Below are positions 1 to 6,042 of a DNA stretch of 44,030 bases, piece by piece. The notes beneath the pieces are model-generated. The model searched no databases. It saw nothing but the letters and a program-made list of their open reading frames with translations, and was not told where the DNA came from. How positions within the stretch are numbered: position 1 is the stretch's first letter; each line of letters opens with the position of its first letter. The stretch comes from a virus (Duplodnaviria > Caudoviricetes): positions 1-44,030 of IMG/VR virus record IMGVR_UViG_3300048579_000395; one strand, 5' to 3'. Made by a program: the position numbers and the translations under genes.

Positions 1-318
1 TCAGGTCGGCGTCGGCCTTGGCCTGATCGAGGAGGGCCTCGGCGGCCTTACGGCGCCGCCCGCGCGCAATCGGCGGGCCTCCTCGATCGCGGCGAGGACG
101 ATCGCCTTGCGGGCGCGCCGCTTGGCGGCGGCAAACGCCGTCTTGTTCTGCCCGCCGGCGCTCCTGCCATTGTCCACATAGGGCTTGCACCGGAAGGTTA
201 GAAAGAGCGGCGTCTCGCGCTCGTGAAGCTTGCCGCGCCATTTGACGTAGTCGCATAGCATCGCGGCGGCCGTCGGGTTCAAGGCGGCAGTGACGTCGAG
301 GCCGTTCTTGGTGCCGCG
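1..318 (-). pseudogene. 5'-truncated, frameshifted tyrosine integrase remnant
   Basis: Manual alignment to 3857-4175 (intact integrase) gives about 24 mismatches plus a 1-nt deletion near 58 over 318 nt; similarity stops abruptly at 318. Confidence 0.9.
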
Positions 319-340
319 GCCTGTCAGTTTCCTGTTAATG
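319..340 (+). repeat. Arm-type integrase binding repeat, copy 1 (GCCTGTCAGTTTCCTGTTAATG)
   Basis: 21/22 identical to 535-556; internal tandem CCTGT(C/T)A; the two copies flank the att core. Confidence 0.7.
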
Positions 341-424
341 ACATGGCGTTCGGATGCATTCGGCCGAGGATCTTCGAAATCTCCCAAAACCTTACAGAAA
401 TATCGATTTTTCGGGGCTTTGGGC

Positions 425-472
<48 letters not shown>

Positions 473-501
473 CGCGGATCAAGGGAGTGGTTAGGCCCGG
501 T

Positions 502-801
502 TTACGGGGCTTTCTGGCGTGCCGTTCGGTGGGCGCCTGTCAGTTTCCTGTCAATGCCGGGGCCGGTGGTCGGGTCCAGGAGGATGGTGGCGACGCGGGC
601 GTAATCGACCATGGCGGCCGAATAGGCGGCGCGGAGGTCGTCACTGGCGGTAGCGCCCGGACAGCCGAGCTGACCGAGCGCGCGGACGGCGGCGCGAAGC
701 CCGGAGGTGGGGGCCTGATTCGCCAACTGCGATCGTCCGGACAAAGTCGCGTCTGTCTGGGCCGGCGCACGGACGGGCTTCCTGGGGCGTTTGCGGGGCA
801 T
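502..801 (-). CDS. Hypothetical protein (doubtful; overlaps att arm)
   Basis: 99-aa ORF with AGGAAGG upstream, following the leftward operon. Confidence 0.35.
   Translation of the reverse strand: MPRKRPRKPVRAPAQTDATLSGRSQLANQAPTSGLRAAVRALGQLGCPGATASDDLRAAYSAAMVDYARVATILLDPTTGPGIDRKLTGAHRTARQKAP
535..556 (+). repeat. Arm-type integrase binding repeat, copy 2 (GCCTGTCAGTTTCCTGTCAATG)
   Basis: Direct repeat of 319-340. Confidence 0.7.
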
Positions 802-831
802 GGCGCCTTCCTGCGGGGGAGGTGTTCGGGT

Positions 832-1152
832 CTAGTCGCCGTTGCGGTCGGGGTCGTCGCGCCGGAAGGCCGGCGGAGCTTCGCGGCTGGGATTGAACAG
901 ATTGACCACCCGGGCGGGGCCAGGAAACGGCGTTGCCCGGGTGAGATTGGGGGTGGGGTCGGGTACGTGCCGGGCAATCACATATGACCCGTGCCGCAAA
1001 AGGATGCGCCGAGCGGGCCGCAGCCGCACGGCCGCCTCGAAGGCCCCGCGGGCAATCAAGGCATTGGTGGCCCGCGCCAGCACCTCGGCGATGGCGTTCT
1101 CGTCGTCCGTCCATTCCTCGACGGCGAAGGGGAGGTCGTCTCGGTCGCTCAT
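832..1152 (-). CDS. Hypothetical protein (MSDRDDLPFAVEEW...)
   Basis: ATG overlaps the stop of the upstream HTH gene (ATGA coupling); GAGG RBS. Confidence 0.7.
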   Translation of the reverse strand: MSDRDDLPFAVEEWTDDENAIAEVLARATNALIARGAFEAAVRLRPARRILLRHGSYVIARHVPDPTPNLTRATPFPGPARVVNLFNPSREAPPAFRRDDPDRNGD

Positions 1153-1418
1153 TTGCGCCTCGTGCGCTTGCCGAAGGTGGCGACGAATTCGGCGGCGATG
1201 ACCTCGGCCTCGGCGGCGGTGAGGTTGTGCTCGATCATGAGCGCGAGGGCGAGGGCGACCGCCGGCGGAATATCTAGCTCGCCGGCGATCCAACGTTGGA
1301 CCGTGCGAACGTCGACGCCGAAGAGGCGCCGGGCGGCGCCTCTCTGGGAAGCCTCAATCTTGTCGAGCGCCGCCGCCAGTTGCTCGGCGGTCAATCTCGG
1401 CAATTCGATGGGGGCCAT
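1149..1418 (-). CDS. Small XRE-type HTH regulator (Aca-like)
   Basis: SQRGAARRLFGVDVRTVQRWIAGE HTH followed by IPPAVALAL. Confidence 0.8.
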   Translation of the reverse strand: MAPIELPRLTAEQLAAALDKIEASQRGAARRLFGVDVRTVQRWIAGELDIPPAVALALALMIEHNLTAAEAEVIAAEFVATFGKRTRRK

Positions 1419-1419
1419 G

Positions 1420-1635
1420 TCAGGCGATCTCGCGGATGCGCCGGCGGTCGTCGGCTGAAAAATGGAACTGGTAGCTTTCGAGGGCGCGCTCGTCGGCGCC
1501 ATAGCGGAACAGTTGTACGATCAAGCAGCCTTCGGCGTCGAGCCGGATCGAGGTATTGTCGGCTTCGAGGAGCGTCTCGGCGGTCTCTTTGCCCCGGTGC
1601 TTGACGCGGACCACGCGCGAGGTGGTGTCGGTCAT
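1420..1635 (-). CDS. Hypothetical protein, 71 aa
   Basis: GAGGT RBS; tight spacing in operon. Confidence 0.7.
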   Translation of the reverse strand: MTDTTSRVVRVKHRGKETAETLLEADNTSIRLDAEGCLIVQLFRYGADERALESYQFHFSADDRRRIREIA

Positions 1636-1644
1636 GGCTGCACC

Positions 1645-2550
1645 TCAGTTGTCCCGGAGGAAATTTTCAATGTCGGCCCAACGTTCGGACGCCTGTACGA
1701 GGCTTTGCCGGCGGGCCTCCTCGGCGTCCTTTGCCTCGCGCCATGCGTCGAGATCGAGAATGCTCTCGATCGCCCGGGTAATGAGGGCGTCGATCACGGT
1801 CGGGTCGAGGGCGTCAAGCTCCCATGAGCTGTCACCGAACGCCGCGATATAGCCCTCTGCCCGGCTATCGGTATCTTTGGCCGGGTTCGGCGGCGGGTCG
1901 TATTCCTGCACCTGTTCCCAATTGAGGGCGAGTCGCCGGACCTCGACGTCGTGTCTCGCGAACATCGCCAAGCGGTCCGCATTGTCGCGGGTCATGTCGA
2001 TCCCGGACGGGTCGTGGTCGCCGAGGTGGAACACGATCGGACGGAAGCGCTCGCGACGTGCCTTCGCAAAGCGCTTGCCGGCGGCATATTGCTCCGACTG
2101 CGAGGTGTATCCGCGACAAGCGAAGTACGGCACGCGGAATCGATCGCACACGGGCTCGATGACGCCGAGGAGCGCATCCTTTTCGATCCAGATTTCCGGT
2201 CGGTATTTCTGATGCGACCAAAGGTCCTCGCGATAGGAGTTCGCGCACGCTTCCATGATGTCGGCCGGATCGTCCCACGTGGATACGCGGCGGACGTTGC
2301 GCGTGCGATCCTCAATCGCGGACCAGTCGACGAGGCCGGCGAGACGGGCATCGTTCACGATCGAGCCAAGGCGCTTGTACTCGGATTGCCGGTTGGGCAG
2401 GAGGTCGCGCGAGACGAACTGGTAATAGAGCTGTCGAAGCGTGAGGGTAAATCCCTGGCGTTGATATTCGTCGATGATCTGGTTGGCGTGTTCGATGATC
2501 GCCAAGCTTCCCTTGGTGAACTTGCGATCGATGAAGGCTTCGCGGGACAT
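1645..2550 (-). CDS. Spo11/Topo VI subunit A-like protein (winged helix plus Toprim)
   Basis: TLRQLYYQ winged-helix motif; Toprim motifs IWIEKDA, CRGY, GDHDPSGIDM; C-terminal WELDAL; GGAG RBS. Confidence 0.8.
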   Translation of the reverse strand: MSREAFIDRKFTKGSLAIIEHANQIIDEYQRQGFTLTLRQLYYQFVSRDLLPNRQSEYKRLGSIVNDARLAGLVDWSAIEDRTRNVRRVSTWDDPADIMEACANSYREDLWSHQKYRPEIWIEKDALLGVIEPVCDRFRVPYFACRGYTSQSEQYAAGKRFAKARRERFRPIVFHLGDHDPSGIDMTRDNADRLAMFARHDVEVRRLALNWEQVQEYDPPPNPAKDTDSRAEGYIAAFGDSSWELDALDPTVIDALITRAIESILDLDAWREAKDAEEARRQSLVQASERWADIENFLRDN

Positions 2551-2556
2551 GGTCGC

Positions 2557-2862
2557 TCACTCCTTCGCCGTCTCAAGATAGCCCGTAACCTCTTCGAAGC
2601 AGGTAGGCGGCTGGCCGGTGAATTCGTCGAGCGCCGATATCGCCTCATCGAGGGCGTCGATTGCGGCTTGCGCTTTCTCGCCGCGCTCGCCGTTCTGCGG
2701 ACCCTCCGGCATGCTGTCGAAAGACTCCTGTTCTTCGTCGCGGACCTCTTCGAGATCGGTCTTGATCTCCTCGGCCTCAGCGACGAGGCTTTCGATCTGT
2801 TCGTTGAGCTTGCTGATACGTTCGGCGACGGCATCGATCCGCTTGCGGCGTCCCTTGTTCAT
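2557..2862 (-). CDS. Acidic helical phage protein, 101 aa
   Basis: GAGGA RBS; basic N-terminus, about 27 D/E residues; first gene after promoter. Confidence 0.8.
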   Translation of the reverse strand: MNKGRRKRIDAVAERISKLNEQIESLVAEAEEIKTDLEEVRDEEQESFDSMPEGPQNGERGEKAQAAIDALDEAISALDEFTGQPPTCFEEVTGYLETAKE

Positions 2863-2906
2863 GTCCGCTTCCTCGTTGGCCGGGCACAATCGCCCATGCG
2901 GTTTCG

Positions 2907-2935
2907 ACTATACGGCTATTAGCCGTATACGGCAA
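2907..2935 (-). promoter_or_regulatory. Sigma70 promoter TTGCCG-N17-TATAGT with a perfect palindromic operator (2909-2929)
   Basis: TATACGGCTA-T-TAGCCGTATA covers the spacer and the -10 element. Confidence 0.75.
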
Positions 2936-3008
2936 GGCGCCGTAATTTGCGCCGAGCCGGAAAACCGGTGCACAATGACGCTGGTTTCGGGTTGGGGGTG
3001 GTCGGGCT

Positions 3009-3524
3009 ATGCGGCTGCAAACATCACGTCATACGGTCGCCGTCGCGGCCGTTCTCGCGGTACTCGCCGGCGCGCCGCCGGCGGCGGCGCAAGAGCGTAT
3101 CCAGACGTTCGGGCGATGGGTGCTCAAGACCGATGCGGACCGCTTCGGTGACGGTGCTACGGCGATTGCAATTGTCGCCAGGGTGGACGGCACCATGTTC
3201 GCAGCGCGGTGTATCACCGGCGATCTGTCACTCGCGGTTTCGACGGGGCGGCGCTCGTCGGAGATCAAGTCCGGCACGGCTTTCCAGGTCAAGTTTCGGG
3301 TCGACGAGCGGCCGGTGTTGGCGACCTATGCCATGGCCCTCAACGACTACATGATCGAGGTGGCGATCGAGCGCGAGATCATGGCTCAACTCGTCGACGC
3401 CAAAGAGGCGGCCTTGCGCTTCGAATCTCCGGCCGGGACCTCATGGGTGACGGTCTACGATGTGCGTGGCGGCCGAAAGCCGATCGAGCGCGTGCTCAAG
3501 GACTGTCCGGACAAGAAAAAGTAA
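3009..3524 (+). CDS. Secreted/periplasmic protein (moron-like)
   Basis: Sec signal peptide ending PPAAA|Q; oriented against neighbours; possible TTGCGC-N18-CACAAT promoter at 2947-2976. Confidence 0.75.
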   Translation: MRLQTSRHTVAVAAVLAVLAGAPPAAAQERIQTFGRWVLKTDADRFGDGATAIAIVARVDGTMFAARCITGDLSLAVSTGRRSSEIKSGTAFQVKFRVDERPVLATYAMALNDYMIEVAIEREIMAQLVDAKEAALRFESPAGTSWVTVYDVRGGRKPIERVLKDCPDKKK

Positions 3525-3537
3525 CGGCTCTATAGCC

Positions 3538-3563
3538 TTGCCGGCGTCGCCTCTTGCCGGCAA
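3538..3563. terminator. Hairpin between convergent genes
   Basis: TTGCCGGC-N10-GCCGGCAA; no clear U tract. Confidence 0.4.
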
Positions 3564-3644
3564 TCCGCCGCCAAATCTGTATTCGCCAAGTCTATCCGTG
3601 CGCCTGGCGGATCTCGAGCGAGCTCGCCGGCGCGTATTCGCGCC

Positions 3645-4946
3645 TCACGAAGACTTGCCTGGCTTGTATTCGCGCCCGATGCGCAAATCGTCGAGATCGG
3701 CGACGAGGCGGCGGCGGTGCTCCGGCATGTCGGCCGAGTAGCCGATCACCGAACGGATATCGAGCCATCCGCCTTGCTCCATGGCGGCGCGCGGATCGGC
3801 CCGCATCAGGCGGGTGGCGAGGAGGTGGCGGAACCAATGTTGGGTGACGCGGCCGATCAAGTCGGCATCAGACTTGGCCTGATCGAGGAGGGCCTCGGCG
3901 GCCTTGCGGCGCCCGGCCGCGCGCAAGCGGCGGGCCTCCTCGATCGCGGCGGCGACGATCGCCTTGCGGGCGCGCCGCTTGGCGGCGGCAAACGCCGTCT
4001 TGTTCTGGCCGCCGGCACTCTTGCCGTTGTCCACATAGGGCTTGCGCCGGAAGGTGAGAAACAACGGCGCCTCGCGCTCGTGAAGCTTGCCGCGCCATTT
4101 GACGTAGTCGCGCAAGATCGCGGCGGCGGTCGGGTTCAAGGCGGCGGTGACGTCGAGGCCGTTCTTGGTGCCGCGAAAAATGATCTGCTCGCGTCCGCGC
4201 GCGAGGATCAAGTCGCACACGCGGGCGCCATAGAGGATCGAGGACACGCGGGCGCCGGTCGACCATTCGACGGCGAGCTGTGCGCGGAGCGAAATATGGG
4301 CGCAATCGAACAGGGCCCGGATCAGGTCCGGCCGCAGGTCCTCGATCCGCCGCCGGGCGCGCCGATTGGGATTGCGGGCCGCCTTGTTGCGCTCGAACGT
4401 GGGCAGGGTGTCGAGGCCGTGGAACCGCTTGGCGAAGGCGAGGAAGCCGAGCGCGCCGGAGAGGAAGCGCTCGCGCGTCTCGGCCTTGTTGCCGGCCATG
4501 CGCCCGCCGTCGCCGTCGCTTCCGTCGATCCATTGGCGCCATTCGGTGGCGTCGATCTCGTTGAGGCGGCGCGGGCCGAAGTGGGCGACGATCTCGCGCA
4601 CGATGCGGATCGTCGAGGCGCCGAGCGGGCGGGCGCGCTTCGTGCCCAGATAAGCGGTCGCCGCTATGGCGACGGGGTCGCCTCGCCGGCGCTCGCCGCT
4701 CGCTTCGGCCTTGATGTCCGTGACGAGGTTTTCGAGGGCGATTTGGGCGTTGCGTTCGGACGTGGCCGCAACGGAAAGCTTAAGACTTTGTCGCAGGCGG
4801 ATTGCACGTCGGCCGGCGTAAATCGTGCCGTGGGCATGCCAGTAGCCATCGATTTCGACGAGGTGTGCTCCCCGACGAGGGCGCCGCCGGGCCGGCTTTC
4901 GCGCTCGATCGCCTCTTGCAACCTCGTCGCTGCCGCCTTGCTCCAT
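3645..4946 (-). CDS. int: Tyrosine recombinase (phage integrase); start uncertain
   Basis: Catalytic set R (TGARVSS), K (TKNG), HWFRH, W (GGW), Y (IGY). Confidence 0.9.
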   Translation of the reverse strand: MEQGGSDEVARGDRARKPARRRPRRGAHLVEIDGYWHAHGTIYAGRRAIRLRQSLKLSVAATSERNAQIALENLVTDIKAEASGERRRGDPVAIAATAYLGTKRARPLGASTIRIVREIVAHFGPRRLNEIDATEWRQWIDGSDGDGGRMAGNKAETRERFLSGALGFLAFAKRFHGLDTLPTFERNKAARNPNRRARRRIEDLRPDLIRALFDCAHISLRAQLAVEWSTGARVSSILYGARVCDLILARGREQIIFRGTKNGLDVTAALNPTAAAILRDYVKWRGKLHEREAPLFLTFRRKPYVDNGKSAGGQNKTAFAAAKRRARKAIVAAAIEEARRLRAAGRRKAAEALLDQAKSDADLIGRVTQHWFRHLLATRLMRADPRAAMEQGGWLDIRSVIGYSADMPEHRRRLVADLDDLRIGREYKPGKSS

Positions 4947-5095
4947 ATCCGCCGTTGCCCCCGGTAGACGTGAAAGTGAAAGCGCTGATCGTCGACGGGG
5001 CGCCGCGCATCGGCGGCAAGCCACCGATCGAGCGTGCGCGCGCCGACCCGCAGGAAGCGGCACACCTCGTCAAAGAGGAGGTCGCCATCGGCCAT
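4664..5095 (-). CDS. Excisionase-like HTH protein overlapping the int 5' end
   Basis: DEVCRFLRVGARTLDRW MerR/AlpA-like HTH, immediately upstream of int. Confidence 0.7.
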   Translation of the reverse strand: MADGDLLFDEVCRFLRVGARTLDRWLAADARRPVDDQRFHFHVYRGQRRIWSKAAATRLQEAIERESRPGGALVGEHTSSKSMATGMPTARFTPADVQSACDKVLSFPLRPRPNATPKSPSKTSSRTSRPKRAASAGEATPSP

Positions 5096-5096
5096 G

Positions 5097-5255
5097 TTAA
5101 TGGACCCTAGCGGGGAATGCTACGGGGGCGAATGCCGGGCCGGATAAGCTGTGCATGGCGCGCTCGGCCAGGACGCCGATCGCCGGCGCGCACGAGGTCG
5201 CGATCCAGGCGAGCGCGATCATGGTCAAAGCGATCCTGCGGGCGCGCTCGCTCAT
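5097..5255 (-). CDS. Small membrane protein
   Basis: Hydrophobic IALTMIALAWIA; ATGA overlap with upstream gene. Confidence 0.55.
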   Translation of the reverse strand: MSERARRIALTMIALAWIATSCAPAIGVLAERAMHSLSGPAFAPVAFPARVH

Positions 5256-5707
5256 GGCCGGCGCTCCGCACGGACGGGGGCGAACAGGTCGGCTTGTCCG
5301 GCGGGGGCGGGCGTCGCGACGAGGCCGCGGCGATGGGCGGCGACGCCGAGGCCGTGGGTCTGGGCGTCGTCCAGGAAGGCGAGGCCGGCGCGCGTGGTCG
5401 CGAACGCGTAGCGGTGCGACGCCACGAGGCTTTCGGCGGTGACCATCACGCCGGTGCCGCCGCGGGGCGTCTCGCGGGCGACGCACAGGATGACGAGGAA
5501 ACCATCGGCCGAGATCACCGCATCGCGATAGCCGGGCGCGCGCTCGGCATAGCGGATGGCGCACCGCATGGCGGCGCCGGCGGCGGCAATGGCCTTGGTG
5601 CGGGTGTTGCCGTCGGCGTGGTCGGCATAGCGCAGATAGTGGTGCGTCCTGGCCGCGTCCTCGATCGCGGCGACGAGTCCCGGCATGTCGTGGACGGTGG
5701 CGGTCAT
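5252..5707 (-). CDS. Hypothetical protein with near-C-terminal QADLF
   Basis: ATGA-coupled in the leftward early operon. Confidence 0.65.
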   Translation of the reverse strand: MTATVHDMPGLVAAIEDAARTHHYLRYADHADGNTRTKAIAAAGAAMRCAIRYAERAPGYRDAVISADGFLVILCVARETPRGGTGVMVTAESLVASHRYAFATTRAGLAFLDDAQTHGLGVAAHRRGLVATPAPAGQADLFAPVRAERRP

Positions 5708-5937
5708 GCCCGCCCCGCGGCGCTGCGGTGGTCGAAGGCGACGAAGGGGCCGCCGCCGTCGTCGGCACCGAGGAGGCGCAGCTCGACCGTGAAGCCGTTG
5801 CCGACCTCGGTCATGGCGGCGAACCAAGCGCGCGGATCGTCCGGCAACTTAAAGCTGCGGGCGATCAGAACGCGGCGGCCGGCGGCCGGCGTTGAGTAGA
5901 CGTCGAGGCAGAGGGTTGGGGCGATGTGAAGGGCCAT
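5704..5937 (-). CDS. Hypothetical protein, first gene of the leftward early operon
   Basis: 77-aa ORF directly after PL-like promoter. Confidence 0.65.
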   Translation of the reverse strand: MALHIAPTLCLDVYSTPAAGRRVLIARSFKLPDDPRAWFAAMTEVGNGFTVELRLLGADDGGGPFVAFDHRSAAGRA

Positions 5938-5961
5938 GCGTTCTTCACCACGTGGAACGCA

Positions 5962-5994
5962 TAGCACGTTACGCTAAACAAACTTGGTTCGCAA
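5962..5994 (-). promoter_or_regulatory. PL-like promoter TTGCGA-N17-TAACGT with operator TAGCACGTTACGCTA (5962-5976)
   Basis: 17-bp spacing; operator resembles the OR palindrome at 6856-6870. Confidence 0.6.
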
Positions 5995-6042
5995 GATTAG
6001 CGGATAACGGTGGTTCGCCGACCTGCTCGCCGAATATTGAGG

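Follow-up and report, generated by a model that had tools for sequence, protein, structure and literature searches.

Which kind of system is encoded by the five coupled genes that lie between the integrase of this virus and its putative attachment site, and how is it controlled? The initial annotation had proposed an autoregulated operon resembling acr-aca operons and had regarded it as the best candidate in the window for an undescribed system. The window (the whole stretch of DNA analysed, 44,030 nucleotides) is the entire 44-kb virus record, with a GC content of 67%; it encodes an integrase, a cI-like repressor, a primase, a terminase, a portal, a contractile tail and an endolysin, and the phage is a temperate myovirus. 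The operon has the integrase on one side and the 3' half of a tRNA (425-472) on the other, in keeping with its earlier placement between att and integrase; tRNA calling on the window returned no whole tRNA. A 93% identical relative of the last gene, E, in Astrobacterium formosum (Hyphomicrobiales) suggests that the window phage has a host among the Hyphomicrobiales.

Features of the operon and its surroundings, by position in the window
Feature	Position	Strand	Basis
tRNA 3' half, anticodon GGT (Thr), likely att core	425..472	-	read from sequence
Gene E, 106 aa, small unnamed family	832..1152	-	sequence relatives
Gene D, 89 aa, Aca1-like HTH, predicted autorepressor; fourth of five coupled genes	1149..1418	-	family profile, operator co-occurrence
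Gene C, 71 aa, no family	1420..1635	-	profile databases, Atlas
Gene B, 301 aa, Mini-A (stand-alone Topo VI-A/Spo11-like), phrog_6247, catalytic motifs intact	1645..2550	-	PHROGs, alignment, model
Gene A, 101 aa, acidic antiparallel coiled-coil hairpin, phrog_4068	2557..2862	-	PHROGs and structure prediction
Predicted 5'-UTR hairpin (lower stem 2 bp, upper stem 5 bp), with 16 nt between its end and the first start codon	2879..2899	-	fold and comparison
Predicted sigma70-type promoter TTGCCG-17-TATAGT, start predicted near 2900	2907..2935	-	promoter scan
Perfect 21-bp palindrome (10-1-10), core 17-bp operator 2911-2927, covering the spacer and the start of the -10 box	2909..2929		palindrome search
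Upstream operator TACGGC-N5-GCCGTA, overlapping the -35 box	2928..2944		exact match; tandem position shared with related promoters

All five open reading frames are real frames (101, 301, 71, 89 and 106 aa), and the gaps between them, 6, 9, 1 and -4 nt, bear out their description as tightly coupled. Gene A, previously noted as acidic, has a pI of 4.3 and matches a PHROGs family (E 9e-25) found in 155 phage records, 116 of these Microbacterium phages. It is confidently modelled as an elongated acidic hairpin of helices in which the conserved residues surround the turn, and a structure search with this model yielded only generic coiled coils (best Z 10.7); PADLOC likewise gave only coiled-coil noise, the JetC matches being short coiled-coil stretches. 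Neither gene C nor gene E has a named family in Pfam, PHROGs, NCBIfam, PADLOC or the Atlas. The predicted fold of gene C bears a faint likeness to DUF3276, under the Atlas bar, which hints at nucleic-acid binding. Loci of gene E were not confirmed in the viral or metagenome scans, and 0 of the 400 genomes that were scored had one. A relative at 46% identity (L238, 3474-3701), missing from the gene list of its record, is an isolated gene amid phage capsid genes in the record of an alphaproteobacterial plasmid. PDB sequence searches with A, B or D singly were uninformative.

Control of the operon begins with the DNA upstream of gene A. Within positions 1-6000 the predicted promoter is the sole match to the scan, agreeing with the consensus at 9 of 12 bases. 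The location originally assigned to the promoter (2935-2907, minus strand) stands. Shuffled sequences give 0.7 +/- 0.9 such matches, and the word 'strong' is therefore not supported by the scan alone, which does no better than chance. The same -35/-10 register is common to 17 other promoter rows. The perfect palindrome said to cover the spacer and the -10 box is present and, within 3 mismatches, unique in the window (0 expected from 100 shuffles); only two perfect palindromes in the window have arms of 10 bp separated by at most 2 nt, and it is the AT-rich one of these. Two 17-bp operators of the form TACGGC-N5-GCCGTA abut in tandem, the search pattern for the second having been derived from the two window sites themselves. 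None of the 12 best window sites of an operator matrix falls in the cI-cro gap, which agrees, in a comparison made through that gap only, with the earlier statement that the operator differs from the CI operators.

The second operator is an addition to the initial description, as is a hairpin just after the predicted start site, which recurs nearly letter for letter in 5 of the 17 other promoters. Among these six sequences 42 of 42 alignment cells are paired (100%), with one one-sided change and no compensatory, two-sided change; its fold energy is no more stable than that of shuffles, and an Rfam search gave no match. We treat the hairpin as a lead.

The protein predicted to read the palindromes is that of gene D. 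Searched alone, it retrieved no Aca from the PDB at E up to 10, nor any match among annotated phages. At a cut-off of E 0.001 its relatives number 243, and a family profile of 84 sequences placed Aca1 first in the PDB (E 1.5e-5), ahead of Aca2, HigA-2 and Aca10 (7XI5) at 6-8e-4; the likeness to Aca1 noted initially for this protein is seen at the level of the family. The family also scores close to HigA/MqsA-type antitoxin HTHs, which are related in fold and share autorepression at palindromes, whereas D has no detected toxin partner and its neighbours vary. In alignment R38, Q41 and R42 of D fall on R44, R47 and Y48 of Aca1, the residues that, according to PMC8633003, read G5, G4 and C6 of the Aca1 operator. 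The GGCAC half-site and the R44, R47, Y48 and R59 contacts that mark the Aca1 family were not recovered for D, which has no equivalent of R59.

Evidence that D and the operators belong together comes from other phages. One member of the D family matched Bradyrhizobium phage ppBeUSDA76-2, in which the HTH gene follows a 94-aa gene and tandem TAGGGC operators stand in the same register as in the window. The promoter-operator DNA shared by these two phages, and DNA only, served as a scan pattern, with a D relative defined as a score of 40 bits or more. Such relatives occur at 9 of the 18 loci found in metagenomes and at 6 of the 56 found in viral sequences (15/74). The six viral positives include the seed phage and two duplicates, the nine metagenome positives include two duplicates, and several positives are closely related to the Bradyrhizobium prophage. 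Among viral loci with a GC content of 55% or more the proportion is 6 of 8. The 231 control loci, covering 1.67 Mb, contained none, their best score being 21 bits. In 11 of the 15 positives the HTH gene lies downstream on the same strand; in 4 it is upstream and divergent. In each of the nine metagenome positives, 4-6 of the 6 bases agree in the right arm of the downstream operator, an arm that the metagenome pattern did not contain, and the five metagenome loci with fewer than 4 such bases have no HTH (0/5). Because operator and HTH co-occur in other phages and the control loci have no D relative, the proposed aca-like autoregulation, to which the top rank of Aca1 also points, appears well supported. 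In the reverse direction, HTH loci found by protein in 401 genomes had an operator within 1.5 kb in 0 of 6 cases, and the link is therefore limited to a subset of the HTH family.

A finer correspondence concerns specificity. The 14 HTHs listed all have Arg at the position of Aca1 R47 and G in the operator, and every operator-positive locus carries this G form; gene D has Gln, with C. Across 72 half-sites only 4 have C, all of them from the window. The pairing of Gln with C, a single case, that of the window itself, would agree with the contact made by Aca1.

That the palindromes are instead read by some other host or phage protein, with D a mere passenger, strikes us as very improbable. Complete operators without a D relative in the available DNA do occur (L243/L258, L298, L300, L302), and an unrelated phage (L199, 2995-3023, and L209) has the same inner palindrome, placed identically with respect to its -35 and -10 boxes, ahead of a gene for 155 aa; the nearest 3 kb contain no D relative. 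Several of the D-less loci are, however, short contigs, the contrast of 15/74 with 0/231 speaks against a passenger role, and in the window the residue and the base have changed together.

Other arrangements were seen in the same scans. One locus (L264) has three operator-promoter copies (231-265, 1807 and 2992-3025) and a single HTH gene, with TGT-like and DUF3560 genes downstream; a TGT-like gene that is similar by eye ends the operon of L258. The three copies echo the multi-operon control by Aca proteins that is described in PMC13551039. Divergent promoter pairs with several operators and the HTH on the opposite arm are found at L304 and L309/L310. Just upstream of the operators in L252, L264, L278, L295-L299, L302 and L305 there is a motif resembling TGTAACAWTTCGTGA, absent from the window, which may bind a host factor.

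How closely, then, does this operon resemble known acr-aca operons? It has the distal small HTH gene, an inverted repeat within the core promoter and an operator that is conserved with its regulator (in the subset above). With acrIF1-aca1 of Pseudomonas phage JBD30 (PMC8633003, PMC13551039) it shares an aligned recognition helix in which R44 is kept as R38, a 21-bp odd palindrome directly after the -35 box (the -35 and -10 boxes being placed by us on the probe of PMC9410881), a second operator upstream and a hairpin just past the start site. It differs in its family half-site, TA(C/G)GGC as against TAGGCAC, in operators that abut at a 17-bp pitch, in lacking equivalents of Y48 and R59 and any known acr gene, and in its probably alphaproteobacterial hosts. 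The acrIC7-acrIC6-aca10 operon (PMC9410881) also has a perfect 10-1-10 palindrome across its core promoter, with 13 of 21 operator bases identical to those of the window by our count, but its core bases differ, Aca10 is a weaker match to the D family (E 8e-4) and it has a single bound site and acr cargo.

The operon would work like an acr-aca operon yet departs from that class in two features: we do not file it there because it lacks known acr cargo and lacks the contacts and half-site of Aca1. The regulatory kind is already known; according to PMC9410906, Aca1-10 follow the promoter-repression logic proposed here and aca-like genes often occur without acr genes. What the window adds is a regulator-operator family that resembles Aca1, appears to be undescribed and probably belongs to alphaproteobacterial phages. 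No published description of the pair was found in a search of openly available text; the literature on Aca-like HTHs in Alphaproteobacteria yielded nothing related, none was found on ppBeUSDA76, and the operator-junction motif is absent from the supplement text of PMC9410906 and PMC13551039.

The largest gene of the operon, B, which had been called Spo11/TopoVI-A-like, belongs to the published Mini-A family. It matches its PHROGs family at E 8e-114, with matches in 84 phage records, including NP1 at 47% identity. In PMC7671362 (Takahashi et al.), NP1 is a reference source of Mini-A, and the family, a subfamily of type IIB topoisomerases, is defined by a length near 300 residues, RxxYY, E...DxDxxG and xWELDAL; the function and partner of Mini-A are left there as open questions. 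Gene B conforms in length, motifs and viral location, in this case a prophage, and no Bergerat-fold B subunit was present among the neighbouring genes scanned. In an alignment of 17 sequences R39 and Y43 of the 5Y-CAP motif (RQLYY), E123, D178, D180 and G183 of the Toprim domain and the whole T2BI box (SWELDAL, 242-248) are invariant, while the tyrosine before the catalytic one varies. The predicted structure matches Topo VI-A best (1d3y, E 5.7e-5; whole-chain TM low, 0.32-0.38). What sets gene B apart from the subfamily is its place in an Aca-like repressed operon beside att; a D relative was found at 0 of 96 other Mini-A loci. Mini-A is predicted to cut DNA by means of its conserved tyrosine and metal site, and such an activity would be a plausible reason for the tight shut-off of the operon.

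The five genes were not found together elsewhere. Of 86 loci with A, 3 have B within about 4 kb, and of 96 loci with B, 2 have A at such a distance; some of these are duplicates, A is always upstream on the same strand, and C, E and a strong D were present at none. As a rule Mini-A and gene A are found apart and unaccompanied by D, and the neighbours of A and B fall into 1100 clusters among 1328 ORFs in rough gene calls. Scanning for the exact palindrome gave 0 viral loci, and for its inner core 49, none with relatives of A-E. The idea of an undescribed five-gene system, for which a survey of gene neighbourhoods had been suggested, accordingly does not survive: no locus holds the cassette, the cargo varies and the Spo11-like gene was already published as Mini-A.

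What recurs is the regulator, and the small genes listed under related promoters change between loci. Among proteins of related operons (41 searched in Pfam, 44 in PHROGs) named matches were to DUF3560, a TGT-like family (phrog_887), HTH families and a serine recombinase, and the DUF3560 protein also matched a primase-labelled family. Searches of 15 of the proteins in PADLOC and of 30 in NCBIfam contributed nothing beyond weak matches. Modification of phage DNA by TGT-like genes protects it from restriction, and regions that are transferred early typically carry DUF3560. According to PMC6965323, DUF3560 is common on plasmids and is targeted by spacers. Searches of Pfam, PHROGs, NCBIfam and PADLOC revealed no known Acr, anti-restriction or defence gene in the window operon, and none of the 41-44 related-operon proteins matched a known Acr or Ard in Pfam or PHROGs (or, for subsets, PADLOC and NCBIfam). 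Because neither the operon nor the cargo of its relatives includes a known Acr, an anti-defence function is something we infer from architecture.

Two further readings of the cargo must be weighed. D may repress the operon while the cargo gives ordinary early help to the phage, Mini-A easing or resolving topology in replication or recombination, without a counter-defence role. Relatives of Mini-A do lie among early and replication genes in Pam3, RHph_TM26, JWF and LWP01, and gene A, at 41 loci, has for the most part neighbours that are unknown or serve replication or regulation, with one DUF932, one DUF2786 and no known Acr or Ard in the 150 of 263 searched against Pfam. We nevertheless consider this unlikely: small cargo genes are exchanged one by one under a single regulator, and the operon sits next to att, outside the replication module, which suits conflict genes better.

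The second reading makes the operon a prophage defence or toxin-antitoxin-like module, Mini-A being a JetD-like nuclease effector that is silent in the lysogen and freed when a HigA/MqsA-like D is lost on superinfection. After Topo VI-A, the model of gene B matches a Corynebacterium glutamicum nuclease (8b7f, E 3e-4), which we take to be MksG/JetD, and JetD itself (7til, E 0.02); HigA-2 is among the PDB matches of the D family, and an att-proximal position is typical of morons. In PADLOC, however, B, C and E have no match, no JetD model of Wadjet (JetABCD), a system in which JetD accompanies the SMC ATPase JetC and kleisin/kite subunits, recognizes gene B, and the sole hits of A are the coiled-coil noise described above. 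Mini-A and A are common in lytic phages, and D persists while its cargo is swapped, unlike one half of a toxin-antitoxin pair. This reading is therefore decidedly improbable.

The explanation that we favour, and hold to be probable, is a self-repressed five-gene operon with a predicted burst at entry, whose cargo likely acts on the host early in infection. On entry of naked phage DNA, host RNA polymerase would transcribe A-B-C-D-E from the unrepressed promoter, independently of cI. Dimers of D would then, with high probability, bind both 17-bp operators, over the -35 box and over the spacer and -10 box, and block transcription; because the same palindromes adjoin D relatives in other phages, brief expression followed by self shut-off is likely. 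Aca1 binds a hairpin in this 5'-UTR position (PMC13551039), and D might also, though this is rather less likely than not, bind the hairpin and damp translation of gene A, as for Aca1 and Aca2. By analogy with acr-aca operons, the exchangeable cargo could serve counter-defence or host takeover, a prospect that we rate a little short of even.

A bolder proposal, which we advance as doubtful, is that D founds a new Aca-type family marking exchangeable anti-defence cassettes in alphaproteobacterial phages, recognizable by the tandem TA(C/G)GGC operator, a one-residue recognition switch and the UTR hairpin, and that Mini-A is a counter-defence or host-DNA-cutting enzyme, expressed in a burst and then silenced, rather than a replication helper. 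If true, such a role would give the Mini-A family its first function. Association with aca genes has been the chief route to new anti-CRISPR and other anti-defence proteins, and the literature on Aca that we found centres on other hosts; a regulator-operator pair that can be located by a short DNA pattern provides a list of candidate cargo in probably alphaproteobacterial phages, and Mini-A is now placed in a context that predicts short, early expression.

Several features flank the operon. On its upstream side a 171-aa gene (3009-3524, plus strand), with a signal-peptide-like start and a weak match to phrog_1848, is oriented divergently at a distance of 64 nt from the upstream operator, which could influence it. 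On the other side, 30 nt after gene E, lies a basic 99-aa ORF (502-801, minus strand) with a good ribosome site and no family, whose exact sequence is absent from the protein collection. Positions 1-318, beyond the att core, are 92% identical to an internal part of the window's own integrase gene (3857-4175) and may be what is left of a related element at this tRNA. Direct repeats at 319-347 and 535-563, about 100 bp either side of the tRNA 3' half, are like integrase arm sites; with both present, the region resembles attP more than a plain prophage junction.
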